Assembly: GCA_963840375.1 (NCBI GenBank)
Contig: CAWIYR010000002.1
Span: 896,613-960,612 of the forward strand
Length of the DNA: 64,000 nucleotides
Reading direction: 5' to 3'
Origin: an uncultured Chloroflexia bacterium
GTDB lineage: Bacteria; Chloroflexota; Limnocylindria; Limnocylindrales; CSP1-4
The notes beneath the pieces are model-generated. The model did not search any database, had not been told where the DNA came from, and saw nothing but the letters and a program-made list of their open reading frames with translations. This document shows, in pieces, positions 25,244-45,350 of the stretch. Position numbers and translations under genes: made by a program. Within the stretch, counting starts at the first letter, position 1, and every line of letters begins with the position of its first letter.

Positions 25244-27664
25244 TCAGCGTCGGGTCCTGCGGCGTCCCTTCCCGCGGCGAGGCGCCGCAAGGTCGCGGGC
25301 CGCTGCGGCGAGCGCCCGGAGACTGGCCTCGGCTCGACCGTTGACGGACCTGGCCGGGTAGGCTCCGTGCTCGTCGCGCTCGCCTGCCGGGACGCCGGTC
25401 AGGAGCTCGATCGCGGCGTCCACGGTGTCCACCGCCCAGACGCTGAACCGACCCGCGGCGACGGCCCCGACCACGTCCGGCCGGAGCATGAGCCGGTCGG
25501 CGTCGGCGGTCGGGATCACCACGCCTTCCGCACCGCTCAGGCCGCGGGCCAGGCAGACGTCGTAGAACCCCTCGATCTTCTCGTCGACCGCACCGACGGC
25601 CTGGGTGCGCCCGTACTGGTCGATCGACCCGGTGACGGCCACGGCCTGGTGCACCGGCACGTTCGACAGGGCGGAGAGCAGGGCGCATGTCTCGGCCAGC
25701 GAGGCGCTGTCGCCCTCGACCGGTCCGTACGACTGCTCGAACACGAGGCTCGCCCGCAGGGTCAGCGGTCGGTCGCGACCGAACCGCCCGCTGATGAAGC
25801 CGCGCAGGATGAGCACGCCCTTGGAGTGGATCGGTCCGCCGAGATCGATCTCGCGCTCGACGTCGACGACCTCGCCGCCGCCCGGGCCGACCCGGGCCGT
25901 GATCCGCACGGGCCAGCCGAACGCCACGCCGCCGATCCCGGCGACGACCAGCCCGTTCACCTGGCCGACCTGCGAGCCGGTCGTCTCGACTCGAAGCGTC
26001 CCCCGGCGGATCTCGTCGTGGACCCGGTCGCGGATGCGGCCGGCCCGTCGGATCCGGGCGTCGACGGCCGCCTCGATGTCCCCGGCCGCGATCGCGATGC
26101 GCTCGTCGTCGCCGGCCAGCTGGTCGGCCTCTCGGAGCAGGTCGGTGAGGTTGCCCATGTGGGTCGACAGGTGATCGGCATCGCCGACCGTCCGGGCCGC
26201 CTCGTCGATGATCCGGGCGACGGCGCCCCGATCGAGCGGCCGCACCCCCGCCCGACGGGCGAGCGATCCGAGCAGGTGCGCGTAGACGAGCTCGTTCTCG
26301 GGCGTCCGCTCGAGGCGGTCCTCGAAGTCCGCCGGGATCTTGAACAGCTCCTGGAACTCAGGATCCAGCTCAGACAGCAGGTAGTAGATCCGGGCGTCGC
26401 CGACCAGGGCGACCCGGACATCGAGGGGGATCGGCTCCGGCTCCAGGGAGACGGACCCGACGAGGCCGAGCGCCTGGGCGAGCGACTCGATCCGGATCTG
26501 CTCGGACCGCATGGCGCGCTTGAGCGCCTCCCAGGCGTACGGCTGGCTGAGGACCTGCCGGGCCTCGAGCACGAGGTATCCGCCGTTCGCCCGGTGGAGG
26601 GCGCCCGCCCGGATGAGCCCGAAATCCGTCTCGAGGGCGCCCATGTGGGCGAGGTACTCGACCCGGCCGACGAGATTCGGATAGGTCGGGTTGAGCTCGG
26701 CGACGACCGGGGCTCCGGTGACGCCGCCGTTGTCGACGAAGAGGTTGACCTGATAGCGGCGGAACGGTCCGGGCTCGCCGCCGACGAGTCGACCCGTCGT
26801 GAGGCCCTGGGCGGCCTGCTCCCCGGCGATCGCCTCGACGGCGTGCTCGACGAGATCCGCCTCGACCGCGGCGAGGTGGGCCAGGACCTCGGGCAGGTCG
26901 GCGTAGGTCGCGCGGAGCTCCTCGAGGAGATGGCTGATCGCGAGACCGGTCACCTCGCGGTCGAGTTCGCGGACCCGTTCGCGGTGCTCACGCTCCCAGC
27001 GGGGGATCGTCCGGATCATCTCCTGGAGCGCGGTCTCGAGGGTCTCCATCCCGTGCTTCAGGCGCTCCTGCTCGGCGGCCGGCAGGCCCTTGAACCCCTC
27101 GGCGTCGAGGACCTCGCCGTCGCGGATGGCGGCGATGGCCGTTCCGACCGGCGTCCGGATGACCGCCACGTCGAGCCCCGCCGCTCGCCGGTCGAGGTCC
27201 TCCATCGCGGCGTCCCGGCGGCCCTTCAGCTCGGTCTCGAGGGCCTCCTTGCGCCCCCGGTAGGCCTCGCTCTCGAAGGCCGCCGGGATCGCGCTCCGAA
27301 GCTCGCGGACGAGGCGATCCATGTCGTCGCGCAGGCGAGCGCCCATCCCGGCCGGGAGCCGGAGAGCGCGCGGGCGCTGCGGGGCGCCGAAGTCGTTGAC
27401 GTAGCACCAGTCGGGCGGGGTCGGCTCGGCCGCGGCCCGCTCGGCGAACTGCTGGCTGATGACCGTCTGCTTGCCGATCCCCTCCGGCCCCAGGGCGTAG
27501 ATGTTGTAGCCCGGTCGTCGCGTCCCGATCGCGAACGCGACCGCCTCGAGCGCCCGGTCCTGGCCCACGATCCGGCCGTCGTCGGGCAGCTCGGCGGTCG
27601 TCTCGAACGGCAGGCCGTCGGGGTCGCAGCTGCGCCTGAGGCGCGTCGCGGCGAGCGGTTCCAC
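25244..27664 (-). CDS. Lon-like ATP-dependent protease (AAA+ domain plus Lon S16 proteolytic domain; LonB/COG1067-like)
   Basis: Walker [11 protein letters not shown]-terminal S16 domain ...[12 protein letters not shown]...[25 protein letters not shown] start with a GAGGAGG RBS, 26 nt downstream of the OFOR gamma gene. Confidence 0.8.
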
Positions 27665-27690
27665 GCTGCGCCTCCTCTCGGCGCGGCCGA

Positions 27691-28269
27691 TCAGCCGGCT
27701 CCGGCGACCACGGTCGCGGGTGGCGCGGCCAGCGGGCGGGCGGCCGCCCGCCCCGCGTCGAAGGCCTGGAGGTCGGCATCGATCACCGCGGACCGCTTCT
27801 CGCCCACGATCGACCGGATGGCCGCCCGGATCGAGGTCACGGTCACGAGGTCGAGGCGCTCGACCAGGGCGCCGAGGGCGACGACGCTGGCCAGGCGCTC
27901 GTCGGCGACGGGACCGGCCAGCTCGGCGCAGGGCAGTCGGAGCTCCTCGAGGTCGTACCGCTCCGAGCTCGCGTCGATGAGCGTGGCGTTGACGATCAGG
28001 AGACCGCCCGGCGCGACGATCGGACCGAACCGCTCCAGCGAGGGTGGGTTCATGACGATCACCGCGTCGGCGAGGTCCACGACCGGTGAGCCGATCGGAC
28101 CGTCTCCGACGATCACGGTGCAGGACGCCGTCCCGCCCCGCATCTCGGGCCCGTACGAGGGGATCCAGAGGGTCTCGAGGCCGTCGACCATGGCGGCCTC
28201 GGCCAGGACGTGACCGGTGAACAGGATCCCCTGTCCGCCGAACCCGGCGATGACGACCGAGCGTTCCAC
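27691..28269 (-). CDS. 2-oxoacid:ferredoxin oxidoreductase, gamma subunit
   Basis: [27 protein letters not shown]...[17 protein letters not shown] start with a GGAGGG RBS inside the end of the beta gene. Confidence 0.85.
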
Positions 28270-28271
28270 GG

Positions 28272-29090
28272 TCAGCCCTCCGGGACGACGGTGGCGGTCG
28301 GGACGACCGTCGATCGGGCCGCCGGCGTCGGCGCGGGCCGGGTCCGGTCGACCAGGACGCCCGGCGGGTAGACCTTCGCGACCGCGTCCCCGAGCCGCGC
28401 GATCGACTCCTGGGGGGTCATCCCCCAGCCGACCGGGCAGTTCGAGAGGATCTCGACGATGGCGAAGCCGGCGCCGGCGAGCTGCACCTCGCAGGCCTTC
28501 CGCAGGAACGCCTTCGTCTTGCCGATGGCGCCAGGGTCGACGATCGAGCCGCGGGCCGCATAGGCCACCCCCGGAAGGATGGCGAGCATCTCGGTGATCG
28601 GCAGGGGGTAGCCGTGGAGCGTCGCGTCCCGGCCGTTCGGCGTCGAGGTGGTCCGCTGGCCGAGCAGGGTGGTCGGGGCCATCTGGCCGCCGGTCATCCC
28701 GTAGATGCCGTTGTTGACGAAGACCGCGGTGATCCGCTCGCCGCGCGCGGCGGCGTGGACGATCTCGGCGGTCCCGATCGCCGCCATGTCGCCGTCGCCC
28801 TGGTAGGTCAGCACGAAGGCGTCGGGTCGGAAGCGCCGGATCCCGGTCGCGACGGCCGGGGCGCGACCATGCGGCGCCTCGCAGAAGTCGAGCTCGAGAT
28901 AGTCGTACGCGAAGACGGCGCAGCCGACCGGTGCGACCGCGATCGTCCGGGGCCCCAGCCCGAGGTCGCCGAGGACCTCGGCGATGAGCCGGTGGATGAC
29001 CCCGTGCCCGCAGCCGGGACAGTAGGACGTGGAGCGCTCCGAGAGCAGCGCGGGGCGGTGGTAGACGACCCGTGGCTCGGTGGCGATCAT
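28272..29090 (-). CDS. 2-oxoacid:ferredoxin oxidoreductase, beta (TPP-binding) subunit
   Basis: [32 protein letters not shown]. Its start overlaps the alpha stop (ATGA at 29087-29090). Confidence 0.9.
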
Positions 29091-30292
29091 CGGACGGCCT
29101 CCGACTCGTACAGCCGGGCGAGCAGCCCGGTCTCGTGGTCGGTCTCCGGATCCGGTGGAGGCGCGCCACCGCCGACCGGCGTCGTCAGGCCGTAGGCGCG
29201 GACGAGCGCCCGGACCACCTCGTCCGGCGTCGGCACGATCCCGCCCATCCGACCGTGGAAGAAGACCGGGGTGGCACCCTCGACGGCCAGCCGGACGTCC
29301 TCGACCATCTGGCCGGCGGACAGCTCGACCGTGAGGATCGCTCGGAGACGCGGGGCGATGGCCCGGATGGCGTCGCTCGGGAACGGCCACAGGGTGATCG
29401 GCCGGAGGAGGCCCACCCGCATCCCGGCATCCCGGGCGTGGGCCATCGCCGTCCGGGCGACGCGAGCCGCGGTGCCGTAGGCGACGATGACGATCTCGGC
29501 GTCCCCCAGCCGCTCGCCGGACCAGCGCACCTCGGTCGCCTCGATCCGTCCGAACTTCGCCTGGAGGTCGCGGTTGTGCGCCTCGAGGTCGTCGGCCCGG
29601 AGATGGAGCGAGCGGATCACCCTGGGCGGGCGCCCGTCCGCCCCGGTCAGGACCCACGGCTCGACCGGTGCCGGCAGCGACCGGAAGTCGGGCTCGACCG
29701 GTTCCATCGCCTGGCCGAGGATGCCGTCGGCGAGGATCATCACCGGGGTCCGGTAGCGCTCGGCGAGCTCGAAGGCATCGGGTACGAGCTGGATCGCCTC
29801 CGCGATCGAGGCCGGAGCCAGGACCGGGACCCGATAGTCGCCGTGGCCGTGGCCCTTGGTCGCCTGGAAGTAGTCGCTCTGCGACGGCTGGATCGAGCCC
29901 AGGCCGGGTCCGCCGCGCATGACGTTGACGAGCACGACCGGCAGCTCCGAGCCGGCCAGGTAGCTCATCCCCTCGGCCATCAGGCTGATCCCGGGGCTCG
30001 AGCTCGAGACGAGGACCCGGGCGCCGGCGGCCGCTGCGCCGAGCGCCATGTTGATCGCACCGAGCTCGCTCTCGGCCTGGACGAACGCCCGGCCCAGCTC
30101 GGGCATCCGGCGAGCCATCCATTCGAGCAGCTCGGCCTGTGGGGTGATCGGGTAGCCGAAGTAGGCGTCGCAGCCGGCCGCGATGGCGGCCTCGGCGATC
30201 GCCTCGTTGCCCTTCATGAGGATCCGGGTCGGCCGATCGGTGGCCGGGACCCCGGTCGCCGACGCGGCGTCGGCCACGGCGAGGGTGGCCAT
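29087..30292 (-). CDS. 2-oxoacid:ferredoxin oxidoreductase, alpha subunit
   Basis: [33 protein letters not shown]...[23 protein letters not shown]. Confidence 0.9.
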
Positions 30293-30293
30293 G

Positions 30294-30554
30294 TCAGGCC
30301 TCCTTGGGTCGGGCGTAGACGGTGAAGACGGCATCGGGGCAGACCCTCGCGCAGCGCGCGCAGCTGGTGCAGGCCGCGGCATCGGTCAGGCGGATCGGGT
30401 GGTGCCCGAGGCGGTTGACGACGCCGGTATCGAGAGCCAGGACGCCCGGCGGGCAGGCCGCGATGCAGAGCTCACAGCCCTTGCATCGATCGGTCGCGAT
30501 GTCGAGGGGGGCCCAGGCGACGGGCAACTCCAGCTCGGCGAGGGCGATGGACAT
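30294..30554 (-). CDS. 2-oxoacid:ferredoxin oxidoreductase, delta subunit (2x[4Fe-4S] ferredoxin)
   Basis: [12 protein letters not shown] and [12 protein letters not shown] motifs. ATG at 30554 is preceded by GGAGG. First gene of the D-A-B-C operon. Confidence 0.85.
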
Positions 30555-30789
30555 GAACGCACCTCCGAACCCTAGGCTGGTCCGGTCCGGGGCTCCCACG
30601 AAGTGCCGAACGGCGCGTCGTCGCGGGCGGATACGCCCGATGGGAACCGTTCGGCCCGGGCCGGTCCGCCATCGGCGTCGTGACTCATCGCCCTATCGCC
30701 CGGGGTGTCGTGGCCCGACGATGACGCTGCGCGATCGGCCCAGCCTGAGCCGGCGGCACGGCCATCCAGGACGAACCGGGAGGCGAGCG

Positions 30790-31269
30790 ATGTCGAGCGA
30801 TCTGCGCCTCGGCGCGGAGGTCGAGCGCCGGTTCATCGAGCACGAGCACCGCGAGATGGCGCCCGGGATCGGCCGGATCGAGGACGTCGCCGGCCTCGCC
30901 GGGAGCCTCGCCGCGCCCGATCTCTCGGCCGCCCTCCGGACGCTCCTCGACTGGCTCCACCGGACTTACCTGCCGCACTGCGACTGGGAGGATTCCTGGC
31001 TCTATCCCGAGCTCGACCGGATCGCCGCGACCCCCTGGGCGACGAGGTCGATGCGCTTCGAGCACCGCCAGATCCGAGAGCTCGTCGAGCGGCTCGAGAT
31101 CGATTGGGAGCTCCTCCGCCACGAGCCCACCCACCGACACCTCGGCGAGCTGCGGGCTCGCCTGTACGGGCTCCACGCACTGGTCCACAGCCATGTGGAA
31201 CGCGAGGAGCGGTTCCTCGTCCCGCTCCTCGATGCCAGAGGGGCCCCCCCGGCGGACCTTCACGCCTAG
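30790..31269 (+). CDS. Hemerythrin-like domain protein
   Basis: His/Glu-rich four-helix pattern: FIEHEHREM...HCDWEDSWLYPEL...FEHRQIRELV...HSHVEREERFLVPLL. Confidence 0.7.
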   Translation: MSSDLRLGAEVERRFIEHEHREMAPGIGRIEDVAGLAGSLAAPDLSAALRTLLDWLHRTYLPHCDWEDSWLYPELDRIAATPWATRSMRFEHRQIRELVERLEIDWELLRHEPTHRHLGELRARLYGLHALVHSHVEREERFLVPLLDARGAPPADLHA

Positions 31270-32634: not shown

Positions 32635-33858
32635 ATGTCCAGGCTCGATGACAGCCTCTACGCGGCGCTCGTGGAACGCGGTGTCTCTCGCCGGTCGTTC
32701 CTGAAGTTCTCGGCGGCGATGGCCGGCGCCCTCGCCCTCCCGGCGAGCTACGCGCCGCGGATCGCCGCGGCGGTCGAGATCGCTCCCCGCATCCCGGTCA
32801 TCTGGCTCGAAGGCCAGGACTGCGCCGGGAACACCGAGGCATTCCTGCGCGCCTCCCATCCGACGACCGCCGAGCTGGTCCTCGACATCCTGTCGGTGGA
32901 CTACCACGAGACGCTCATGGTGGCCGCCGGCCAGCAGGCCGAGGAGGCCCGGCTGGCCACGATGGAGAAGTTCCCCAACGGCTACATCGCGGTGGTCGAG
33001 GGCTCGGTCCCGATCGCCGATGGTGGCGTCTACTGCACGATCGGCGGGCGCGCCTTCAGCGACACCGTCCGGCAGGTCTGCGAAGGCGCGATGGCGACGA
33101 TCTCGGTCGGCACGTGCGCCTTCGACGGCGGGCTGCCCGCGGCCGCCGGCGGCCCGACCGGCGCGGTCGGGGCGAGCGCCGCCGTCCCGAAGGCGAAGGT
33201 CATCAACCTGCCGGGTTGCCCGATGAACGTCCAGAACTTCACGGCGACGATCGTCCACAAGCTGACCTTCGGCGAGTGGCCGGCGCTCGACGCGATGGGC
33301 CGGCCCTTGTTCGCCTACGGCCAGCTGATCCACGACCAGTGCGAACGACGGGCCCATTTCGACCGGGGCGAGTACGTGATGGCGTGGGGCGACCAGGGCG
33401 CGCGCAACGGCTGGTGCCTCTACAAGATGGGCTGCAAGGGCCCCGAGACGCTGGCCAACTGCCCTACCGCCCGGTTCAACGACGGCACGAGCTGGCCGGT
33501 GAAGTCGGGTCACGGCTGCGTCGGCTGCACGATGCCCGGGTTCTGGGACGCCATGAGCCCGTTCTACCGGCGCCTGCCGGCGCCCACGCCGTTCCCGTCG
33601 GACGTCACCGTCGACCAGGTCGGGATCGTCCTCGTCGGCGGCGTCGCCGCCCTGAGCGCGGCCCACGGCGTGGCCAGCTACACCCGCAAGCGGCGGATGG
33701 ACGCCAAGGCGGCCGCCGGGATCTCGAGCGCCGCCGGTGTCGCGGTCGCCACCCCACCGGACGGCGGGCCGCCGGCGGCTCCACCACCGATGGCCCCACC
33801 GCCCGCGCCGCCATCGGCCGGGTCAGCCAGCGACCAGGCCAGCGGGAGGGCCGAGTGA
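32635..33858 (+). CDS. hupS: [NiFe]-hydrogenase small subunit, Tat-exported, with C-terminal membrane anchor
   Basis: Tat signal SRRSFLKFSAAMAG. Fe-S motifs GTCAFDGG, LPGCPMN, HDQCERRAHF, GWCLYKMGCKGP, NCP, GHGCVGCTMPGFWD. C-terminal TM helix plus a Pro/Ala tail. Confidence 0.95.
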   Translation: MSRLDDSLYAALVERGVSRRSFLKFSAAMAGALALPASYAPRIAAAVEIAPRIPVIWLEGQDCAGNTEAFLRASHPTTAELVLDILSVDYHETLMVAAGQQAEEARLATMEKFPNGYIAVVEGSVPIADGGVYCTIGGRAFSDTVRQVCEGAMATISVGTCAFDGGLPAAAGGPTGAVGASAAVPKAKVINLPGCPMNVQNFTATIVHKLTFGEWPALDAMGRPLFAYGQLIHDQCERRAHFDRGEYVMAWGDQGARNGWCLYKMGCKGPETLANCPTARFNDGTSWPVKSGHGCVGCTMPGFWDAMSPFYRRLPAPTPFPSDVTVDQVGIVLVGGVAALSAAHGVASYTRKRRMDAKAAAGISSAAGVAVATPPDGGPPAAPPPMAPPPAPPSAGSASDQASGRAE

Positions 33859-33859: not shown

Positions 33860-35570
33860 ATGACCAGGATCGTCGTCGATCCGATCACCCGGATCGAGGG
33901 TCACCTCCGGATCGAGGTGGAGGTCCAGAACGGCGTCGTGTCCGACGCCTGGAGCTCCGGGACGATGTTCCGCGGCCTCGAGCTCATCCTCCAGGGTCGC
34001 GATCCACGCGACGCCTGGGTCTTCGCCCAGCGAGCCTGCGGGGTGTGCACCACGGTCCACGCCCTGGCGTCGGTGCGCTCGGTCGAGAACGCCCTCGAGA
34101 TCAAGATCCCGAAGAACGCCCGGATCGTCCGGAACCTCATCGCCGGATCGCAGTACGTCCAGGACCACGTCATCCACTTCTATCACCTGCACGCCCTGGA
34201 CTGGGTCAACATCGTCTCGGCCCTGTCGGCCGATCCGGCGGGCACCGCCGCCCTGGCCCAATCGATCAGCGACTGGCCGCTCTCCAGTGCGAGCTACTTC
34301 AAGGGGGTCCAGGACAAGCTCGCCGCGTTCGTCAAGACCGGTCAGCTGGGCCCGTTCGCCAACGGCTACTGGGACAACGCGGCCTACAAGCTCCCGGCCG
34401 AGGCGAACCTCATGGCCGCGGCCCACTACCTCGAGGCGCTCGACTGGCAGCGCCGGATCATCCGGATCCACGGCCTGCTCGGGGCGAAGAACCCCCATCC
34501 CCAGACCTATGCGGTCGGCGGGATGGCGCTCTCGATCGACCCGAACTCGACGACGGCCCTCAACGCCCGCGGGCTGTCCGAGATCAGCCAGCTCATCACC
34601 GAGGCGAACGACTTCGTCGACCGGGTCTACATCCCGGACGTCCTGGCCGTCGCCGGGTTCTACAAGGACTGGGCGGCCCTGGGTCGCGGCATCGGCAACT
34701 ACATGTCCTACGGCGAGTTCCCCCAGGACGACTCGGGTCAGCCGTCGGCGTTCTACCTGCCGCGCGGCCGGATCATGGGCCGCGACCTCTCGAAGGTGGA
34801 GCCGGTCGATCACACCCAGGTGGCCGAGACGGTGGCCCACTCCTACTACACCTACGACGGCGGGGACACCCAGTACAAGCATCCCTGGGACGGCCAGACG
34901 AAGCCGAACTACACGGGTCCCAAGCCGCCCTTCGAGACGCTCGAGGGGTCGGACAAGTACAGCTGGCTCAAGTCCCCGCGCTACGCCGACCAGCCGATGG
35001 AGGTCGGGCCGCTCGCTCGGATGCTGGTCGCCTACGGCGCCGGTCAACCGGAGGTGAAGGCCGCCGTCGACGCCGTCCTGGGCAAGCTCGGCGTGGGCGC
35101 CGAGGCCCTCTTCAGCACCCTCGGCCGGATCGCCGCCCGGGCGATCGAGACCCAGCTCATCGGCCACCGAGCTCCAGCCCTGGCTGACCGAGCTGGCCGA
35201 GAACCTCGACACGGGCGACCTGACGATCGCCGACACGACCCACTGGGAGCCCAGCACCTGGCCGGCCGAAGCCGAAGGCTGGGGCTTCGAGGAGGCGCCC
35301 CGCGGATCGCTCGGCCACTGGGTGAAGATCAAGGACCAGAAGATCGCGAACTACCAGCTCGTCGTGCCGAGCACCTGGAACGGCTCGCCGCGCGACGACA
35401 AGGGCCGGCGGGGGGCGTGGGAGGAGGCGCTCATCGGCACTCCGGTCGGCAACCCGGCACAGCCGGTGGAGATCCTCCGGACGATCCACTCGTTCGACCC
35501 GTGCATGGCCTGCGCCGTCCACGTCTACGACCCTGACGCGGGCAGCTCGGTCGAGATCCGGGTCGTTTGA
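33860..35570 (+). pseudogene. hupL: [NiFe]-hydrogenase large subunit, reading frame interrupted by a +1 shift near 35165-35169
   Basis: N-terminal part (33860-35167) carries RIEGH and RACGVCTTVH. Homology then jumps to the +1 frame (35169-35570: ELQPWLTEL...EEAPRGSLGHWVKIKD...STWNGSPRD...HSFDPCMACAVHV plus a 15-aa tail). The as-written frame continues as Arg-rich nonsense to 35536. Joined length would be about 569 aa. Confidence 0.9.
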
Positions 35571-35580: not shown

Positions 35581-36480
35581 GTGATGACTGCCATCCCCGC
35601 CCCCGGCCCGGCCCCGACCCGACCGGCCGCGGCGGCCACCCGGGCGGCCGACGACGAGCTCGAGATCCCCCCGGGTCTCGAGCGGGTCCGGATCTACGTC
35701 TGGCAGGTCCCCGTCCGGGTGACCCACTGGGTCACCTTCTCGGCGATCGTCGTCCTGACCGTGACCGGTGCGTACATCGCCGACCCGTTCTTCTTCGCCT
35801 TCAACGCCGAGACGATGTCGACGATGCGGGTGGTCCACATGCTCGCGGCGTTCATCTTCCTCGCCTCGGGCGTCCTGCGGACGTACTGGCTCTTCGCCGG
35901 CAACCAGTTCTCGCGCTGGACCGCGTTCGTCCCAACGAACCGGCGGCACCTGGCCGAGGTCCGGACCCAGACCGCCTTCTACCTCTTCCGGAGCCGGGAC
36001 ATCCCGGGCATCCTCGGCCACAACGCGCTGGCCGGCGGGACCTACACCGTGGTCTTCTTCCTGTTCCTCATCCAGACCGTCACCGGCTTCGGGATGCTCG
36101 CCATCCACGGCACGGAGCCGTGGGCCGCCCTGTTCGGCTGGGTCCCGGCGCTGTTGGGGGAGCAGGGGATGCGCCTCCTCCACCACCTGCTGATGTGGGT
36201 GATCCTGGCCTTCGCCGTCCACCACGTCTACAGTGCGATCCTCGTCGACCACTGGGAGCGCAACGGGCTGATGTCGAGCATCTTCGCCGGCTCGAAGTTC
36301 GTGCCTCGCTGGCGGATCGACGAGGCCCGCGATGGCGGGATCGCCTTCGACCGGATGGTCACCCGGGAGGACATCGAGACGTCGATCGTCGAGGCCGTCG
36401 AGGCCGGCCAGCCGCTGACGAAGGAGGAGGTCGTGGCCCTCGACGAGGCGACCGAGGCGGTGGAACGGGACGCCGGGTGA
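35581..36480 (+). CDS. hupC: Ni/Fe-hydrogenase b-type cytochrome subunit
   Basis: VRVTHWVTFSAIVVL..., four TM helices with conserved His (HMLAAF, HHLLMWVILAFAVHHVY). It sits immediately after the large subunit. Confidence 0.9.
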   Translation: MMTAIPAPGPAPTRPAAAATRAADDELEIPPGLERVRIYVWQVPVRVTHWVTFSAIVVLTVTGAYIADPFFFAFNAETMSTMRVVHMLAAFIFLASGVLRTYWLFAGNQFSRWTAFVPTNRRHLAEVRTQTAFYLFRSRDIPGILGHNALAGGTYTVVFFLFLIQTVTGFGMLAIHGTEPWAALFGWVPALLGEQGMRLLHHLLMWVILAFAVHHVYSAILVDHWERNGLMSSIFAGSKFVPRWRIDEARDGGIAFDRMVTREDIETSIVEAVEAGQPLTKEEVVALDEATEAVERDAG

Positions 36481-37025
36481 GCGCGCCGGACGGTCCGCTT
36501 CTCGTCCTCGGGATCGGCAACGTCCTGCTCCGGGACGAAGGGGTCGGGGTCCAGGTCATCCGCGATCTCGAGGCGCGCGTCGAGCGCGGCGAGCTGGCCC
36601 TGCCGCCGGACACCGAGCTTCTCGACGGGGGCACCCTCGGGCTCGACCTCCTGCCCCGGATCTCGGACGCCCGGGCACTCCTCCTCGTCGACGCGATCGA
36701 CCTGAAGGATGAGCCGGGGACGATCCGGATCCTCCGGGGGCCGGAGATCCAGGGCGCCCTGTCGGGGCACGTCTCGCCCCACCAGGTGGGCATCGGCGAT
36801 CTCATCGCGGCGGCCCGGCTCATGGGCACCCTGCCGAACGCCGTCGTGCTGGTGGGCATCCAGCCGCTCGAGATCGAGATCGGCCTGGAGCTCAGCCCGC
36901 CCGTCCGTGCGGCGCTGCCCGGTGCGGTCGAGGCCGCCATCGCCGAGCTCGGTCGACTGGACGGCGCGGGAGGGTCGTCGGACCCGGGGATGACCGGGGC
37001 CGTTCCGACCCCGGCGACGGGCTGA
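36477..37025 (+). CDS. hupD: Hydrogenase maturation endopeptidase (HyaD/HupD family)
   Basis: LLVLGIGNVLLRDEGVGV...LLDGGTLGLDLL...LLLVDAI...HQVGI. GTG overlaps the cytochrome b stop (GTGA at 36477-36480). Confidence 0.9.
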   Translation: MSAPDGPLLVLGIGNVLLRDEGVGVQVIRDLEARVERGELALPPDTELLDGGTLGLDLLPRISDARALLLVDAIDLKDEPGTIRILRGPEIQGALSGHVSPHQVGIGDLIAAARLMGTLPNAVVLVGIQPLEIEIGLELSPPVRAALPGAVEAAIAELGRLDGAGGSSDPGMTGAVPTPATG

Positions 37026-37100: not shown

Positions 37101-37442
37101 ATGCATGAGTCGGGACTCGCGGCAGCGGTCGCGGACGCCCTCCGCGGTGAGCGGCTCGACGGCGCCCGGGTGCGGCTCCTCGTGAGCGGAGGCCACGCGG
37201 ACCCCTTCGACTTCGACGCCGCGTTCCGCTTCCACCTCACCGCGGCGGCGCCCGACCTCGGCGCGCTCCCGCTGGAGATCGTCCATCTGCCGACGGACCG
37301 GCTGTGTGTCGGCTGCGGCCGCACCTTCGCCGCGATCACCGCCGACGAGCCCTGCCCGAAGTGCGGATCGGTGGGTCTTCCGACCCAGACGACCGAGCGG
37401 GTCGAGATCGAGCTGGTACGCCCGGGTGCCAACGACCCCTGA
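37101..37442 (+). CDS. hypA: Hydrogenase nickel-insertion protein HypA
   Basis: N-terminal MHE nickel motif and the CVGCG...CPKCG zinc site. Confidence 0.9.
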   Translation: MHESGLAAAVADALRGERLDGARVRLLVSGGHADPFDFDAAFRFHLTAAAPDLGALPLEIVHLPTDRLCVGCGRTFAAITADEPCPKCGSVGLPTQTTERVEIELVRPGANDP

Positions 37443-37533: not shown

Positions 37534-40299
37534 GTGACCGTCGAGGGCGTCGTCCAGGGTGTCGGCTTCCGGCCGTTCGTCTGGCGGCTGGCCCACGAGC
37601 TGGGACTCGACGGCGTGGTCCTGAATGCCGCGGGCCGGGTCGAGATCCGGGTCGCGGGCCCAGCGCAGGCGGTCGAGCGCTTCATCGAGCGGCTCGCCTC
37701 CGACGCCCCGCCCCGGGCCCGGGTGGAGCGGGTGGTCGCGGCCGAGATCGCGATGGATGCTTCCCCCGAGATCGCCGCCGCACCCCGGCGCGGCTCGGGC
37801 TTCACGATCGAGGAGAGCGTGGCGGCCGCGTCCGTGGTCCGCCTCTTCCCGCCCGACATCGCCACCTGCGACGACTGCCTTCGGGAGCTCTTCGACCCGA
37901 ACGATCGGCGCCATCGCTACCCGTTCACCAACTGCACGAACTGTGGGCCCCGGGCCACGATCATCGAGGAGCTGCCCTACGACCGGGCCCGGACGTCGAT
38001 GCGCGACTTCCCGCTCTGCGAGGCCTGCGAGCGGGAGTACCGCGACCCGGCCGATCGCCGCTTCCACGCCGAGCCGGTCGCCTGCCCGGCCTGTGGCCCG
38101 CGGCTCGCCTTCCGTCGAACCGGCGACCCGGCGCCGATCCGGACCGGCGACGCCGCCCTGGCCGAGGCCGTCGGCGAGATCGTCGCCGGACGGGTGGTCG
38201 CGGTGAAGGGGCTCGGCGGCTACCATCTCGCCTGCGACGCGACCGACGGTGCGGCCGTCACCCGGCTCCGCGACCGCAAGCGCCGCTGGGCGAAGCCGTT
38301 CGCGGTCATGGTCCGCGACCTTGCCGCGGCCCGCTCGATCGCTCAGCTCACGCCGCTCGAGATCGAGCTGCTCACCTCGCCCGCCCGGCCGATCGTGCTG
38401 GTGTCGATCCGCCCGGACGCTCGTCCGGCGATCGCGCCCGAGGTGCTGAACGGGAACCGCCGGATCGGGCTCTTCCTGCCGTACACGCCGCTCCATCACC
38501 TCCTGCTCGAGGCGACCGGCCGACCGGTCGTGCTCACCAGCGGCAACCTCTCCGACGAGCCGCTCGTCACCGACGATGACGAGGCGCTCGCCCGGCTGGC
38601 CGGGATCGCCGACGCCTTCCTGGCCCACGATCGCCGGATCCGGGCGCGCTACGACGACTCGGTGACCCGGGTGCTGGGTCGGGGCGTCACTGCCCGCGAG
38701 TCGATCATCCGGCGCGGGCGCGGCTACGCCCCGGACCCGCTGACCCTGCCCGTCGAGCTCCCGGCCGGCGAGGTCGTCCTGGCCGCCGGAGCCGAGCTGA
38801 AGCACACGTTCGCCCTCGCGGCCGGGTCACGGGCCCACGTCGGACCGCACGTCGGCGACCTGGAGGATCTCGCGACGCACCAGGCCTTCCTGGGGAACCT
38901 GGCCCACCTCCAGCGGCTCCTCGCCCTCGAGCCCGGACGGGTCGTCCACGACCTGCATCCGGGGTACCTGTCCACCCGGTTCGCGCTCGATCGGTTCCCG
39001 GCCGACCGACGGATCGCCGTCCAGCACCACCACGCCCACGTCGCGTCGTGTGCCGCCGAGCATGGGGTCACGGTACCGTTCCTCGGGATCGCCTACGACG
39101 GCCTGGGGATGGGCGATGACGGGACCTTCTGGGGCGGCGAGGTTCTCATCGCGGACCTTCGCGGCTACCGTCGCTTCGCCCGCTTCGGGCTGGCGCCGAT
39201 GCCCGGTGGGGCGACAGCCGTCCGCAAGCCCTACCGGATGGCCCTGGGCTACCTGTTCGGCGCCGAGGGCGACCCGACGGGCGACCCGCTCGCGGGCGCG
39301 ATCGCCGACGGGGTCGCGGCGGCCTTCCTCGCCCGGCTCGACCCCCGTGAGGTCGAGGTCGTCCGGGTCCAGCTCCGTCGCCGGCTCAACGCCCCGCTCG
39401 CCTCGAGCGCCGGTCGGCTCTTCGACGCGGCCAGCAGCCTCATCGGTCTGCGCGACGTCGCCGAGTTCGAGGCCCAGGCGGCGATCGACCTCGAGATGAC
39501 CGCCGACCCGACGGCTCGTGGTCGGCTTCCGTACCGCCTCGTCCGGCGCGACGGCCTGCTGGTCTACGACCCGCGACCCACCCTGCTCGGCCTCCTCGAG
39601 GGGCTCGCCGGGGGGACGACGCCGGCCGTTCTGGCCGCCCGCTTCCAGGCCACGATCACGGCCGTCACCCGGGAGTTGTGCGCCGAGGCCCGCCGGTCGA
39701 CCGGGATCGAGGTCGCCTGCCTGTCCGGCGGGGTCTTCCAGAACCGCCACGTCGCCGATGCGCTCCTGACCGGTCTGGCTCGCGACGGCTTCGACGTCCA
39801 CATCAACGAACGGGTCCCGGTGAACGACGGGGGCATCAGCTACGGCCAGGCGGCCGTGGCTGCCGCCCGGCTCGCCGCCTCGTCCGCTCGCCCCCGCGGC
39901 CGGCCCGGCCGCCGCGCTCACCCGGAACCCCTGAGGAGGACCACCGCCATGTGCCTCGGCATCCCCGGCAAGGTCATCGAGATCCGCGACGAGGCGGGTC
40001 TGCGGATGGGCCGCGTCGACTTCGGCGGCGTCCGCAAGGAGGCCTGCCTGGCCTATGCGCCCGAGGTCGAGCTCGGCGACTACGTCATCGTCCACGTCGG
40101 GTTCGCGATCAGCAAGGTCGACGAGGAGGAGGCCCTCCGGACGCTCGAGCTCCTGAGCACGATGGGCGACCTCGTCCAGCAGGAGCTGGCCACGATGGGC
40201 CCGGGGATGAGCCTGCCCGCCGTGGTCGACGACCCGATCCCCGACCCGGCGGCCGGGCCGGGCAGGACCGCGCCGCTCGCCGGCGGGCCCGTGGCATGA
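37534..40299 (+). CDS. hypF: Carbamoyltransferase HypF; frame stays open through hypC as written
   Basis: Acylphosphatase motif [10 protein letters not shown], two zinc fingers (CDDC...CTNCGPR, CEAC...CPACGP), YrdC-like and Kae1-like domains, ...[10 protein letters not shown]. The start is uncertain (GTG 37534; alternative GTG 37426). There is no in-frame stop before the hypC ATG at 39949. HypF-like sequence ends near 39870. Confidence 0.85.
39949..40299 (+). CDS. hypC: Hydrogenase assembly chaperone HypC, with a 41-aa Pro-rich C-terminal extension
   Basis: [12 protein letters not shown] (essential N-terminal Cys) preceded by a GAGGAGG RBS. Nested in frame inside the hypF ORF. Its stop overlaps the hypD start (ATGA at 40296-40299). 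Confidence 0.85.
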
Positions 40300-41447
40300 A
40301 GTACCTCGACGAGTACCGCGACCCCGTACTCGCCAGGAAGCTCATGGCCGAGATCCACCGGATCACGACCAGGCCGTGGACGCTCATGGAGGTCTGCGGC
40401 GGCCAGACCCACACGATCGTGAAGCAGGGCATCGACGAGATGCTCCCCGACGGCGTCCGGATGATCCATGGGCCGGGCTGTCCGGTCTGCGTGACCCCGC
40501 TCGAGCAGGTCGACAAGGCCCTGGCCATCGCCGCCCGGCCGGACGTCATCTTCACCAGCTACGGCGACATGCTCAGGGTCCCCGGCTCCACCACCGACCT
40601 CCTCTCGCTCAAGGCCCGCGGCGCCGACGTCCGGATCGTCTACTCGCCGCTGGACTCGGTCCGGATCGCCCGGGCGAACCCGGATCGCCAGGTCGTCTTC
40701 TTCGCGGTGGGCTTCGAGACGACCGCTCCGGCGAACGCGATGGCGGTCTGGCAGGCCGCCCAGCTGGGGGTCGACAACTTCTCGATCCTGGTCTCCCACG
40801 TCCTCGTCCCGCCGGCGATGATCGCCCTGCTCGAGTCGCCCAACAACCAGGTCCAGTCGTTCCTGGCCGCGGGCCACGTCTGCGCGGTGATGGGCTGGAC
40901 CGAGTACGAGCCGATCGCCGCGAAGTACCACGTGCCGATCGTGGTGACCGGCTTCGAGCCGCTCGACCTGCTCGAGGGGATCCTCATGGCGATCCGCCAG
41001 CTGGAAGAGGGTCGGGCCGTCGTCGAGAACCAATACGTCCGGGCCGTCAAGCGCGGCGGCAACGCGCTCGCCCAGGAGACGATCTTCCGGGTCTTCGACG
41101 TGGGCGAGCGGACCTGGCGGGGGATCGGCGAGATCCCGGACTCCGGCTACCACCTCAAGCCCACCTTCGCGCGGTTCGACGCCGAGACGAAGTTCTCGGT
41201 CGCCGAGATCCACACCAGGGAGCATCCGGCCTGCATCGCCGGGGCGATCCTGACCGGCGAGAAGTCGCCCCTGGACTGCACGGCCTACGGCGTCCTGTGC
41301 AGCCCCCAGAAGCCGCTCGGCGCGCCGATGGTCTCGTCAGAGGGGACCTGCGCCGCGTTCTACTCGGCGGGGCGGGGGATCGGCGCCCCGGCCCGGCCGC
41401 TGCCGATGGTCGAGCCGCTTACCCTCCGGCCGGAGGCGATCCGATGA
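40296..41447 (+). CDS. hypD: Hydrogenase formation protein HypD
   Basis: MKYLDEYRD..., [28 protein letters not shown]-terminal cysteine motifs. Confidence 0.95.
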
Positions 41448-42577
41448 CCGGGGTGCGGGACGGCGACGGCCTCCCCGCGATCGGGACGGCCGCCGCGTCT
41501 GACCCCCTGCCCGGCTCGGCGGCCCGGCCGGACCCCAGCGGGGCGGTCTGCCCCGCCCCGATCCCGGAGGTGGAGCGGGTCCTCCTGGGTCACGGGTCCG
41601 GCGGGCAGCTCTCGGCCGCGCTCATGCGCGACGTCATCGCACCGGCCCTGGCCGGCGCGAGCCCGGGCGGCCCGCTCAACGACGCCGCGATCGTCGAGAC
41701 CGGCGGCCAGCGGCTCGTCTTCACCACGGATTCGTTCGTGGTCAGCCCGATCGACTTCCCGGGCGGCGACATCGGCGACCTGGCGGTGAACGGGACGGTC
41801 AACGACCTGGCGATGATGGGCGGTACCCCGATCGCCCTGTCACTCGCCTACGTCATCGAGGAGGGGCTGCCGATCGAGGACCTCCGCCGGGTCACCGAGT
41901 CGGTCGCCCGGGCGGCCTCGCGGGCCGGCGTCCCCGTCGTCACCGGCGACACCAAGGTCGTGAACCGCGGCGCCGCCGATGGCATCTTCGTCAACACCGC
42001 TGGGATCGGCGTGGTCCCGGACGGTGTGGCCCCGGCCGCCGACCGGGCTCGAGCCGGTGACGTCGTCCTCCTGTCCGGGGCCATCGGGCTCCACGGGGTC
42101 GCGATCATGAGCGTCCGCGAGGGGCTCGACTTCGAGGTCGAGATCGCCTCGGACAGCCAGCCGCTCCACGGGATGGTCGGCGCGATCCTGGCGGTCGACC
42201 CGGACGTCCACGTCCTGCGCGACCCGACCCGCGGCGGGCTCGCCTCCGCCCTCAACGAGATCGCCGCCACCTCGGCGGTCGGGATCGTCCTGGAGGAGTC
42301 CGCCGTGCCGATCCCGGGACCGGTCCGGGCCGCCTGCGAGATGCTCGGGCTCGACCCGTTCCACGTCGCCAACGAGGGCAAGTGCGTGGCGATCGTGGCC
42401 GCCGACCGGGCCGCTGCGGTCCTCGCCGCGATGCGTGCCTGCCCGGAGGGCGCCGAGGCCGTCCGCATCGGCGAGGTCGTCGCCGAGCACCCGGCGATGG
42501 TCACGATCCGGACCATCGTCGGCTCGGAACGGATCGTGGACATGCTCGTCGGGGAGCAGCTCCCCCGGATCTGCTGA
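41444..42577 (+). CDS. hypE: Hydrogenase expression/formation protein HypE
   Basis: LGHGSGG..., AIR-synthase-like fold, and the C-terminal PRIC with the carbamoyl/cyano-accepting Cys. ATGA overlap with hypD. Confidence 0.95.
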
Positions 42578-42578
42578 G

Positions 42579-43286
42579 ATGGCCATCGGCGAGGCGACCA
42601 TCACACCTCGCGCCACCGCCGTCGCCAGGATCCGGGACGTCCTCCTGGGTGGCCAGGACGGCCTGGTCAACGTGCTCGGGCTGGTGCTCGGGCTGGCCGT
42701 CGCCACCGGTGACACCCGGGTCATCATCACCGCTGCGCTGGCCTCGATGTTCGCCGAGTCGATCGCGATGGCCGGTGTCGCCTTCACCTCGAGAGGGGCC
42801 GAGCGGGCCTATGCGGACGATGCTCGCGGCGAGCTCCAGGCCCTGCTGATCCAGCACTCCACCGAGCGGATCGAGCGGCGGCGGGCGGCGCTGATCCACG
42901 CCGGCCGAGACGTCGACCTGGTCGACGCGACGGTCGAGGCGATGATCGACGAAGCCGCTGGATGGCAGGCCAGCCTGGAGCTTCTCGAGCGGTCCCTGGC
43001 GCCGATCCGTCAGGCGCAGCCGGCCAGGGCCGCGGCCATCGTGGGGCTGTCAACCTTCGTCGGGTCGGCGATCCCCCTCGTGCCGTTCCTCGTGCTCCCC
43101 GTGGCCGAGGCTTCGATCGCCGCCCTGCTCCTGGCTGGGATCGTCCTGTTCATCGCGGGGGTCGAACGCGGGCGGATCACCGGCGGCGCGCGGCTCCGGT
43201 CCGGGATCGAGCTGGTCGCGATCGGGTTGGCGTCGGCGCTGGCCGGGTTCCTCATCGGCCGCGCGCTGCGGGCGCCGGGGGCCTGA
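42579..43286 (+). CDS. VIT1/CCC1 family Fe/Mn transporter-like membrane protein
   Basis: VLLGGQDGLVNVLGLVLGLA...SMFAESIAMAGVAFTS...coiled middle...three C-terminal TM helices. It starts 1 nt after the hypE stop. Confidence 0.75.
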   Translation: MAIGEATITPRATAVARIRDVLLGGQDGLVNVLGLVLGLAVATGDTRVIITAALASMFAESIAMAGVAFTSRGAERAYADDARGELQALLIQHSTERIERRRAALIHAGRDVDLVDATVEAMIDEAAGWQASLELLERSLAPIRQAQPARAAAIVGLSTFVGSAIPLVPFLVLPVAEASIAALLLAGIVLFIAGVERGRITGGARLRSGIELVAIGLASALAGFLIGRALRAPGA

Positions 43287-43396
43287 TCGGGGACGCCCCT
43301 CGGGACGACCGGCCCCCCGCCACGGTGACCGCCGGCCCCTGCCGACCGGGCCCCCCGGCACTCATCCGCATCTGCGCATACGTCGATAGTCCGGGT

Positions 43397-43783
43397 ATGG
43401 ACGAGATCTACCAACTCCAGGCGGAAGTCCTGAAGACGCTCGCCAGCCCGCGCCGGCTCGAGATCCTCCACCGGCTCGCGGAGGGCCCCTGCGAGGTCGG
43501 CCGCCTGGCCGAGGAGCTCGGGCTCACGCAGCCGAACGTCTCGCAGCACCTCGCGCTCCTCCGGTCCGCCGGGGTCGTCGAGGCGGAGCGCGACGGTCGA
43601 GAGGTCCGCTACCGGCTGGCCGACGGCGACGTGATCGTCGCCTGCTCGATCATGCGCGGGGTCCTCCAGCGCCGGATCCGGCGGCTCGCCGGCATCTCGG
43701 ACGAGGCGGACCAGCGGGTCGAGGACGCACCGGCGGTCCCACCTACGACTTCCGGCAGCCCCATCGCCGTCACCACGAACTGA
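43397..43783 (+). CDS. ArsR/SmtB family transcriptional regulator (two-Cys, possibly persulfide-sensing BigR/SqrR-like)
   Basis: LKTLASPRRLEILHRLAEGPCEVGRLAEELGLTQPNVSQHLALLRSAGVV...VIVACSIM. Confidence 0.8.
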   Translation: MDEIYQLQAEVLKTLASPRRLEILHRLAEGPCEVGRLAEELGLTQPNVSQHLALLRSAGVVEAERDGREVRYRLADGDVIVACSIMRGVLQRRIRRLAGISDEADQRVEDAPAVPPTTSGSPIAVTTN

Positions 43784-43796
43784 GGTTCAGCACGTC

Positions 43797-44210
43797 ATGG
43801 ACGAACCCCTCAACCTGGTCCTCTTCTCCGGGACCGACGATAAGCTCCAGGCCGCCGCGGTCCTCGCCGCCGGCGCCGCCGCGCTGGGCAAGCCGGTCAA
43901 CATCTTCCTCCAGTACTGGGCGCTCGACTCCTTCCGGGCCGACCGGATCGAGCGCGACCACGGCCTCGCCCCCGAGGCCGGCGCCGAGGGCCGCGGCCAC
44001 GTCGACGCCCTCCGGGCGGCCGGCCAGGCCAGCTGGGCCGAGACGTTCCGCCAGGCCAAGGAGCTCGGCTCGATAGACATCCAGGCCTGCTCCCTGTCGA
44101 TGGACCTGCTCGCGCTCGAGCAGACCGACCTCGACCCGCTCGTCGACGGCGTGGAGGGCGTGACCGCCTTCTACCTGAACGCCGGCGAGGGGCACCTGGT
44201 CTTCATCTGA
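43797..44210 (+). CDS. DsrE/DsrF-like sulfur-relay family protein
   Basis: LNLVLFSGTDDKLQAAAVLAAGAAALG...IQACSLSMDL shows the DsrE fold pattern with a conserved Cys. Confidence 0.7.
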   Translation: MDEPLNLVLFSGTDDKLQAAAVLAAGAAALGKPVNIFLQYWALDSFRADRIERDHGLAPEAGAEGRGHVDALRAAGQASWAETFRQAKELGSIDIQACSLSMDLLALEQTDLDPLVDGVEGVTAFYLNAGEGHLVFI

Positions 44211-44244
44211 GCATCAACCCGCGCACGAAGGAAGGAGTGCACTC

Positions 44245-44484
44245 ATGGCACCGATCGTGGAAGTCGATCAGCGGATCGACGCTCGAGGCCTGTCCTGCCC
44301 GATGCCGATCGTCAAGACCGCCCAGGCGATGAAGACGATGACGGCGGGCCAGGTCCTGGAGGTCCTCGCCACCGACCCCGGATCCCTGAAGGACTTCGCC
44401 GCCTGGTCCAAGTCGACCGGCAACGACCTTCTCGAGACCACCTCCGACGGCGCGGTCTACCGCTTCGTCATCGCCAAGAAGTGA
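44245..44484 (+). CDS. tusA: TusA/SirA-like sulfurtransferase
   Basis: IDARGLSCPMPIVKTAQAM carries the CPxP active-site motif; 79 aa. Confidence 0.85.
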   Translation: MAPIVEVDQRIDARGLSCPMPIVKTAQAMKTMTAGQVLEVLATDPGSLKDFAAWSKSTGNDLLETTSDGAVYRFVIAKK

Positions 44485-44491
44485 GGTCGAG

Positions 44492-45049
44492 ATGACCGTC
44501 GCCGAGGCCACCGTCCGCGAGGACGCGCCAGTTCCCGCTCCCCAGGCCGCCGTCGCCCCAGAGGCCGAGGTGAAGCCGAAGGACATCCTGATCATCAACT
44601 ACAGCGGCGAGCTCGAGAAGGTCTGGGCGACGATGATCCTCGCCTCGACGAGCGCCGCCATGGGCGTCAAGACCCGCGTCTTCGTGACCTTCTGGGGCCT
44701 CCAGGTCTTCGTCAAGGACGAGAAGCGGATCACCGGCGACAACGCGATGCAGAAGATGATGTCGGCCATGCAGCGGCCGGGCATCAGCCATCGCAAGCTC
44801 AGCAAGATGAACTTCCTCGGGATGGGCCCCTGGATGATGCGCAAGCTCGCCAAGCAGTACAGCGTCGCGAGTCCCAAGGAGCTCCTCGAGGCGGCCCAGC
44901 TCATGGGCGTCGAGTTCATCCCGTGCCAGATGACCATGGACATGTTCGGGCTCAAGCCCGAGGACATGATCGAGGGCATGGCCGAGCCGGCCGGCGCCGC
45001 GACGGTCATCGGCCTGATGACCGAGCAGTCGGTCCCCCTGTTCATCTGA
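44492..45049 (+). CDS. DsrE/DsrF-like family protein (DsrE2-like, longer form)
   Basis: ILIINYSGELEKVWATMILASTSAAMG...FIPCQMTMDMFGL. Confidence 0.7.
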   Translation: MTVAEATVREDAPVPAPQAAVAPEAEVKPKDILIINYSGELEKVWATMILASTSAAMGVKTRVFVTFWGLQVFVKDEKRITGDNAMQKMMSAMQRPGISHRKLSKMNFLGMGPWMMRKLAKQYSVASPKELLEAAQLMGVEFIPCQMTMDMFGLKPEDMIEGMAEPAGAATVIGLMTEQSVPLFI

Positions 45050-45098
45050 TCCCAGCGCGTCCCGACGACCGCTCCACCACCAAAGGCAGGAACCCACG

Positions 45099-45350
45099 AT
45101 GACCGAGACCACCGCCCTCCCCGAGATCACCCGGACGATCGACGCCCGCGGCAGCTTCTGCCCCGGTCCCCTGATGGAGCTCATCCGCGCCATCCGCGAG
45201 GCCCAGGTCGGCGACGTGCTCTCGGTCTACTCCTCGGACAAGGGCAGCAAGACCGACATCCCGAAGTGGATCGAGAAGGCCGGCCACAAGCTGCTCGCCC
45301 TCGAGACCCGCGACGGCTTCGACGAGATCATCGTCGAGAAGATGCGGTAG
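45099..45350 (+). CDS. Second TusA/SirA-like sulfurtransferase
   Basis: IDARGSFCPGPLMELIRAI carries a CPxP-type motif; 83 aa. Confidence 0.8.
   Translation: MTETTALPEITRTIDARGSFCPGPLMELIRAIREAQVGDVLSVYSSDKGSKTDIPKWIEKAGHKLLALETRDGFDEIIVEKMR

Follow-up and report, generated by a model that had tools for sequence, protein, structure and literature searches.

We show here that hupL, the gene for the large subunit of a group-1 [NiFe]-hydrogenase, is broken in the deposited sequence by one base, that the break lies at 35170/35171, and that this base is absent from an assembly of the same species. The reading that we favour, at a probability of about 60%, is a consensus error: one nucleotide too many would have been written into the metagenome-assembled genome (MAG) of an uncultured Chloroflexota / Ca. 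Limnocylindrales bacterium, built from long reads and probably from Nanopore reads alone. The extra base would then have arisen during basecalling or polishing and not in the cell, and the actual gene would read CAC CGG CTC (...LIGH-R-LQPW...) and encode an intact 569-aa large subunit of a membrane-bound H2-uptake enzyme of group 1. It would be co-transcribed with hupS, hupC, hupD and hypAFCDE, and its product would be matured in the usual way. The coordinates of the operon and of the parts of hupL are collected in Table 1.

Table 1. Genes of the hydrogenase operon and segments of hupL, numbered by position in the window (the whole 64-kb stretch of DNA that was analysed).
Feature	Position	Strand	Basis or remark
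hupS, small subunit, 407 aa, Tat signal, C-terminal membrane anchor	32635..33858	+	Oxidored_q6 and NiFe_hyd_SSU_C full length
hupL, group-1 [NiFe]-hydrogenase large subunit	33860..35570	+	one frame change
hupL, first 437 codons (Met1-Arg437)	33860..35170	+	frame A; tblastn of joined protein, residues 1-437
Supernumerary nucleotide, A35170 or G35171	35170..35171	+	deletion of either gives 569-aa protein
hupL, last 132 codons and stop (Leu438-Val569)	35172..35570	+	frame +1; stop 35568-35570
Frame-A read-through, 121 Arg/Pro/Gly-rich codons and stop (35534-35536)	35171..35536	+	not a real CDS
hupC, b-type cytochrome membrane subunit	35581..36480	+	Ni_hydr_CYTB 1-179 of 179
hupD, endopeptidase for the HupL C-terminal tail	36477..37025	+	HycI 1-129 of 130
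hypA, nickel metallochaperone	37101..37442	+	Pfam HypA
hypF, carbamoyltransferase	37534..39948	+	five HypF domains by Pfam; no in-frame stop
hypC, N-terminal Met-Cys, own AGGAGG Shine-Dalgarno (SD) sequence 10 nt upstream	39949..40299	+	Pfam
hypD	40296..41447	+	Pfam HypD 3-349 of 351; ATGA overlap with hypC
hypE	41444..42577	+	Pfam AIRS and AIRS_C; ATGA overlap with hypD

Frame structure of hupL and its operon

The letters at 35150-35183 are ACC CAG CTC ATC GGC CAC CGA G CTC CAG CCC TGG. From the start codon of hupL, ATG 33860, which lies one base past the hupS stop, frame A encodes typical large-subunit sequence, including the N-terminal RxCGxC nickel-ligand motif (as QRACGVCT). This sequence ends as ...RIAARAIETQLIGHR (...RAIETQLIGHR) and is followed by Arg-rich nonsense, giving a product of 558 aa (P0103). 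Translated from 35169/35172, the +1 frame reads (E)LQPWLTELAENLDTGD...EEAPRGSLGHWVKIKD...HSFDPCMACAVHVYDPDAGSSVEIRVV and then the stop, which ends at 35570. The segment of this frame directly after the break begins (E)LQPWLTELAENLDTGDLTIADTTHWEPSTWPAEAEGWGFEEAPRGSLGHWVKIKDQK and closes with ...HSFDPCMACAVHVYDPDAGSSVEIRVV before the stop codon; in it lie the PRG motif, the Ni/Fe ligands (DPCMACAVH) and the C-terminal tail of 15 aa that is removed by HupD. As deposited, the four cysteine ligands of the Ni/Fe centre are therefore not in one frame, QRACGVCT and DPCMACAVH being encoded in different frames, and they come into a single frame only once A35170 or G35171 is deleted. The junction is CACCGAGCTCC in the deposited form, extra base included, and CACCGGCTCC (or CACCGACTCC) minus one base; the corresponding junction peptide of full-length HupL is IAARAIETQLIGHR joined to LQPWLTELAENLDTGDLTIADTTHWEPSTWPAEAEGWGFEEAPR.

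The frame break is confirmed as real and far beyond chance. The PF00374 profile is matched at its positions 1-394 by the first piece (E 1e-169) and at positions 392-508 by the second (E 4e-56), such that the two pieces abut, and in the 558-aa product nothing past residue 440 is matched by Pfam. Residues 3-554 of the joined protein align with the large subunit of Allochromatium vinosum (PDB 3myr_B, E 7e-211), and the repaired protein likewise matches this enzyme and Salmonella Hyd-5 (4C3O_A, E 2e-204), its two nearest solved structures, end to end, the junction being ungapped. Codon-position GC (GC1/GC2/GC3) is 0.65/0.45/0.95 for frame A upstream of the break and 0.66/0.49/0.94 for the +1 frame downstream of it, whereas frame A downstream of the break gives 0.95/0.66/0.49, a non-coding pattern; this indicates that the real coding frame switches at the break. 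Pfam, 3myr_B and codon-position GC thus agree with the first-pass annotation, made from the sequence alone, that the large subunit is broken by a +1 frame change. Its description of the ORF as written, Arg-rich to 35536 and without the DPCxxCxxH ligands and the cleaved tail, is equally borne out.

The operon has the order hupS-hupL-hupC-hupD-hypAFCDE, and hypB is not in the hup/hyp cluster. The group 1 operon partners of hupL are full length, namely hupS with its Tat signal, hupC (Ni_hydr_CYTB) and hupD (HycI). PDB small subunits match the hupS product (E 4e-91), and the small subunit on a JGI metagenome contig (P0122), which is identical to HupS of the window at 406 of 407 residues, shows a weak TAT_signal match. 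The start of hupC is GTG 35581 or ATG 35584, and its length agrees with that of a 298-aa gene on the JGI contig, with which the hupD coordinates also agree. The GTGA overlap of hupC and hupD, together with the ATGA overlaps listed in Table 1, suggests that these genes may be translationally coupled. The first-pass annotation had considered all the other structural and maturation genes to be intact; Pfam upholds this for hupS, hupC, hupD and hypA/F/C/D/E, with the qualification that the stop codon of hypF is out of frame (see below).

By its sequence, the repaired hupL would be an unremarkable large-subunit gene of a membrane-bound uptake [NiFe]-hydrogenase of group 1. It shares with HupL/HyaB/HoxG of group 1 (PF00374) the RxCGxC and DPCxxCxxH motifs and the 15-aa cleavable tail. 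The deposited gene differs from this group in its one extra base and its 558-aa product, which lacks the C-terminal ligands. HupS of the window, in turn, differs from the group 1 small subunit in having CAGN, not CTGC, at the first motif of the proximal cluster.

The whole 64 kb were scanned for frame changes by a three-position likelihood on codon-position GC. Same-strand frame switches occur at ordinary gene boundaries, with a stop within ~40 nt, and the sole exception is at 35143-35211. No internal frame break other than that of hupL occurs in the window. A DsrE-like ORF at 43797-44210 was considered as a truncated gene and rejected, its ortholog in a related locus (L161) having the same length of 137 aa.

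Position of the extra base and an intact conspecific gene

A homolog search of 5.8 billion proteins gave two informative matches. One, P0103, is the frame-A product itself, as called in the source genome and present in NCBI and ENA. The other, P0001, is an intact 569-aa protein from the 14-kb JGI contig, and it reads ...LIGH-R-LQPW... across the site. Because P0001 reads H-R-L, frame A is valid through CGA at 35168-35170 and the +1 frame is valid from CTC at 35172. The first-pass annotation had let frame A end at 35167 and the +1 frame begin at 35169, with H-E-L at the junction; it was right about the vicinity of the break, but the H-R-L of P0001 puts the extra base at 35170/35171. Removal of either A35170 or G35171 restores a protein of 569 aa, the length that had been predicted for the joined sequence, with no internal stop and with 567 of its 569 residues identical to P0001. 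The two differences, E248A and A469T, fall one on either side of the break, that is, one among the 437 residues that precede it and one among the 132 that follow.

The choice between the two nucleotides can be narrowed by codon usage. Close relatives have CGG or CGC as the Arg codon at the site, and CGA accounts for only 11 of the 268 Arg codons in the cluster, compared with 140 for CGG. Since the relatives use CGG or CGC and CGA is rare in the cluster, a change of CGG to CGAG is the most parsimonious, and A35170 is more likely to be the extra base, CAC CGG CTC having become CAC CG[A]G CTC.

The JGI contig (sample 3300075153, 14,181 bp), which carries both P0001 and P0122, comes, judging from its proteins, from the same species, but was assembled independently and from another sample. 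According to the gene tables hupL has 1710 nt on the JGI contig (positions 8308-10017) and 1711 nt in the window. When the start and stop positions on the window side were checked against the boundaries in the JGI gene table, the JGI-to-window offset was 25552 at every boundary upstream (the POR/OFOR genes, ferredoxin, hemerythrin, the tRNA_edit gene, hupS and the hupL start) and 25553 at every boundary downstream (the hupL stop, hupC, hupD, hypA and the hypF start). By these gene-table boundaries, the sole net difference in length over 13 genes and 14 kb is +1 nt within hupL.

Conservation among relatives and the case for recoding

The hupL genes of relatives were surveyed in 160 related loci, drawn from GTDB representatives and from JGI/ENA metagenomes; these relatives are MAGs of Chloroflexota / Ca. 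Limnocylindrales. Each of the 160 loci matches the query across essentially its whole available length, and the frame-break scan detected a break in hupL in one of them only (L098), near the C-terminus. Among these loci 157 were scorable at the site, and in none of them is there a gap in the nine codons around it. Similarly, the split is absent from the 120 best database homologs, the window's own P0103 left out, all of which are single ORFs and nearly all of 565-572 aa. The closest locus is 82% identical in the scan of GTDB representatives and 85% identical in the scan of metagenome contigs.

It could be argued that the extra base is tolerated by recoding, through a +1 shift at a rare, I:A-decoded CGA, or that hupL is a naturally split gene whose Ni-binding piece is made separately. 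In such a shift CGA-G would be read as a quadruplet or G35171 would be skipped, and the event could be programmed or could be a low-level, leaky rescue. Slippage into the +1 frame can be promoted by codons that are rare or poorly decoded, and the CGA at the junction is indeed of a rare kind in this cluster; the frame downstream is, moreover, perfectly preserved. The split is not conserved, however: the relative whose protein is 99.6% identical is unshifted, and all 157 scorable loci are ungapped. No recoding signals were found at the junction. Slippery re-pairing at CAC CGA G fails for both CAC to ACC and CGA to GAG, and neither an A-site stop codon nor an upstream SD-like stimulator is present at the junction; the absence of a slippery heptamer and of an in-frame stop, as claimed in the first-pass annotation, is evident from the sequence at the site. 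The fold of the 100 nt that follow is not significantly more stable than that of shuffled versions (z = -1.17). Transcriptional slippage was likewise considered and rejected, as the site has no homopolymer (no A/T run). A separately translated C-terminal piece could begin at GTG 35322 at the earliest, no start codon of the +1 frame lying closer to the break, which is 150 nt away. Such a piece would lack 50 residues, the conserved PRG motif among them, and the closest SD-like sequence, a GAGGAGG ~25 nt upstream of this GTG, is too far away.

Both forms of this argument have a known counterpart. In Methanococcus voltae, VhuA/VhuU constitute a naturally split large subunit whose C-terminal Ni-binding piece is made separately. 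With prfB-type +1 frameshifting and with VhuA/VhuU the hupL break has in common the +1 frame relation and the separated C-terminal Ni-binding segment. Unlike the prfB-type shift, however, hupL lacks a slippery or stop-codon shift site, an SD stimulator and conservation, and, unlike VhuA/VhuU, its C-terminal piece lacks a usable start codon or ribosome-binding site and it has no split relative. The literature on frameshifting or recoding in hydrogenase large subunits yielded nothing relevant. Because no relative is split and the near-identical relative is intact, conserved recoding and a natural split were rejected, and we hold a recoded or split hupL to be highly improbable. The first-pass annotation, which had offered recoding as one of its explanations, had taken the same split in close relatives as the mark of a recoded or naturally split gene. 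By that test the outcome is negative, the closest relative being intact and one base shorter, and no relative being split. Only a minute probability attaches to the combination of a real extra base with low-level synthesis of full-length HupL by +1 slippage at the inosine-decoded CGA-G. The same very low probability applies to the proposal that such leaky slippage would act as a population-specific, unprogrammed rescue or as an expression throttle of the uptake hydrogenase.

Source of the extra base: consensus error or recent inactivation

Of the three explanations in the first-pass annotation (inactivation, an insertion in the assembly, and recoding), recoding has thus fallen, and between the other two the indirect evidence favours the assembly error. 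The source contig is 1,216,802 bp long, and all contigs of >500 kb among the 160 related loci come from Microflora Danica (MFD) MAGs; the source is probably a long-read MAG, because its contig reaches 1.2 Mb although the lineage, from soil or sediment, is uncultured. The Microflora Danica MAGs were built with Flye from Nanopore reads alone and given one round of Medaka polishing (PMC12313526). Work from the same group indicates that bins below ~40x coverage need short-read polishing against frameshifting indels (PMC9262707). A base rate for such breaks was obtained by running the nine Hup/Hyp proteins of the window in tblastn against the 160 related loci. The MFD Nanopore loci, 69 kb in all, have three frame breaks, and the other loci have two in 621 kb (L151 hupS and the hupL C-terminus of L098). 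The rates are 4.3 versus 0.32 per 100 kb, a ~13-fold difference with a binomial p of 0.009, although the three events are not independent. Indeed, all three of the MFD breaks are in one MAG (L059), where, like the hupL break, they occur in a non-homopolymer context, of 73% GC.

An error in the consensus is also favoured by the extent of the damage, a single base that the conspecific JGI assembly lacks, and by two features of the window itself: the 132 codons past the break show no decay and have a full coding signature, and there is a probable second discrepancy, of +1, in hypF. Against it, the hupL site is no homopolymer, homopolymers being the classic context of Nanopore indels. None of the 17 homopolymers of at least six bases in the window has a detectable frame break. 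Also against an error is the finding that there is no other internal break in 64 kb, so that the assembly is not generally error-ridden; furthermore, a pair of lesions in the same operon would be compatible with real decay as well. A miscall at a methylation motif was considered as the origin of the extra base, the insertion creating GAGCTC and the presumed ancestor having CCGG. It was set aside because the window has 71 GAGCTC and 1291 CCGG sites and yet only one internal break, so that a systematic effect is lacking.

The discrepancy in hypF lies 4.8 kb downstream of the hupL break. In the window hypF has no in-frame stop, and its ORF stays open into hypC, which shares its frame. The stop codon by the hypC SD sequence, TGA 39932-39934 in the motif TGAGGAGG (39932-39939), is +1 out of the hypF frame, whereas in four related loci (L161, L100, L010 and L006) hypF closes in frame with a TGA or TAG directly 5' of the hypC GGAGG. 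The best match of hypC, P0124 from locus L161, is 94% identical, and no near-identical match was found for the hypF tail with hypC. Compared with L161, the hypF tail of the window has 46 extra nt, that is, 3n+1. This suggests that a second one-base surplus may lie in ~39880-39931, which is very GC-rich and contains a C5 run, in a tail that is highly variable. Its effect would be mild or nearly neutral, because hypC keeps its own SD sequence and ATG. It should be emphasized that such a second lesion could be found only in the hydrogenase operon, where alone relatives are available, and that the apparent clustering of the two is therefore search-biased.

The principal alternative is that the insertion, CGG to CGAG, is real and very recent and has knocked out hupL in the population that was sampled. 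The broken gene would produce a protein of 558 aa without the C-terminal Cys pair, which provides two of the four Ni ligands, and without the HupD cleavage site. No active hydrogenase would come from the operon, the rest of which would not yet have decayed. The extra base is, after all, present in the deposited sequence, and the non-homopolymer site in a window otherwise free of internal breaks makes the assembly look generally accurate. Breaks also exist in the short-read assemblies of relatives, such as those in L151 and L098, at ~0.3 per 100 kb, but this is the base rate that is ~13 times lower than in the Nanopore-only relatives. The out-of-frame hypF stop, as a second lesion, would agree with a relaxation of selection across the cluster; given its near neutrality, however, it provides no argument for decay. 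There is no sign of relaxed selection in hupL itself, which has two changes in 569 aa relative to P0001, one of them in the 132 codons past the break, a comparison of low power. In addition, all eight partner genes are full length and their translational coupling is intact. Known frameshift pseudogenes likewise arise by a single-base insertion that truncates an enzyme and removes essential ligands; hupL differs from them in showing neither secondary decay nor relaxed selection and in having an intact conspecific allele. On balance, a real inactivation is less probable than a consensus error, but it is a substantial possibility.

The consensus error that we favour would be of the kind known from Nanopore consensus assemblies and MAGs, in which indels cause frameshifts (PMC9262707). 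Here a single-base indel fragments the gene call of a conserved, otherwise intact gene on a megabase-scale MAG contig, and comparable breaks are those of L059. The hupL break differs from the classic Nanopore cases, which are in homopolymers, and the source technology is here itself presumed. The break belongs to a known class, either gene fragmentation by long-read indels or else an ordinary frameshift pseudogene, and neither is new. The biological weight is accordingly small, as a MAG consensus error and a fresh knockout of a common enzyme are both routine outcomes. If the insertion were real, H2 oxidation would have been lost in one population of Limnocylindrales and kept in a sister whose protein is 99.6% identical. 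Metabolic reconstructions should, pending a check of the reads, treat hupL as probably intact and not as absent or pseudogenised. The entry P0103 in the protein databases carries a spurious Arg-rich tail of 121 residues. A short-read contig from the same species can, as shown here, pin such an error to within two bases.

Proximal-cluster motif of HupS

Residues 59-62 of the hydrogenase small subunit HupS (window 32809-32820), within the motif QDCAGNTE, read C-A-G-N, whereas the corresponding positions are C-T-G-C in standard group-1 enzymes and C-T-C-C in their O2-tolerant counterparts. By comparison with C-T-G-C, the second Cys that ligates the proximal Fe-S cluster is an Asn in HupS, and a Gly is found where the O2-tolerant enzymes have their additional Cys120. 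The motif is CAGN in 61 related loci, CAGD in five and CCGN in a further five. CAGN is a trait of the clade and not a sign of decay, and the proximal cluster of HupS may be ligated in an unusual manner.

Reading frames in the operon and its relatives

The mechanical ORF list began hupL at GTG 33737, inside hupS, giving a product of 599 aa. This start was rejected; the real start, matching that in the JGI conspecific, a 14-kb metagenome contig, is ATG 33860, one base past the hupS stop. The choice between the two is of consequence for ORF bookkeeping only.

At its 3' end (39880-39951) hypF lacks an in-frame stop, and its ORF runs on into hypC without a change of frame. The TGA at 39932-39934, where the stop is expected, sits +1 out of frame, immediately 5' of the hypC Shine-Dalgarno sequence GGAGG. 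An in-frame TGA or TAG is found at this spot in four relatives (L161, L100, L010 and L006), and the hypF tail exceeds that of L161, whose HypC is 94% identical to the window's, by 46 nt (3n+1). The discrepancy may stem from a further single-base insertion or error, in addition to that in hupL; alternatively, a tolerated loss of the stop may account for it.

Apparent frame breaks were also found in related loci (see table). The hydrogenase operon of L059 contains three within 3.5 kb: hupC has a single break and hypF a pair. The sequence at each is GC-rich and not a homopolymer, and the pieces around them retain 39-83% identity to the window's proteins; these three breaks are likely to be consensus errors. 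The single breaks in the metagenome contigs L098 and L151 differ in position from that of the window.

Genes flanking the operon

Upstream of hupS, the window and the contig of the JGI conspecific are collinear. Directly 3' of hypE lies a conserved gene block, whose order is kept in L161 from the regulator onward. This arrangement suggests a sulfur-trafficking or oxidation module tied to the hydrogenase cluster.

Flanking genes of the window and apparent frame breaks in related loci
Feature	Location	Coordinates	Remarks
2-Oxoacid:ferredoxin oxidoreductase cluster, 4 genes	Window, upstream of hupS	within 25553-31269	Fer4, POR_N/PFOR_II, TPP_enzyme_C, POR gamma; region mostly minus strand
Hemerythrin and YbaK/tRNA_edit genes	Window, upstream of hupS	within 25553-31269	Region mostly minus strand
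Block 3' of hypE	Window	42435-46515	
Block gene 1	Window		VIT1-family protein; no counterpart in L161
Block gene 2	Window		ArsR/HTH_5 regulator
Block gene 3	Window		DsrE-like, 137 aa
Block gene 4	Window		TusA
Block gene 5	Window		DsrE-like, 185 aa
Block gene 6	Window		TusA
Block gene 7	Window		Pyr_redox_2 oxidoreductase, 385 aa; L161 ortholog has a faint FCSD_central match
L059 breaks	MAG MFD02979.bin.2.128, CAWJQZ010000027.1	7785-11232	Nanopore-only; hydrogenase operon
L098 break	OFHK01007362.1	1977-2060	Single, apparent; hupL C-terminus
L151 break	Ga0138573_1157354	1711-1717	Single, apparent; hupS
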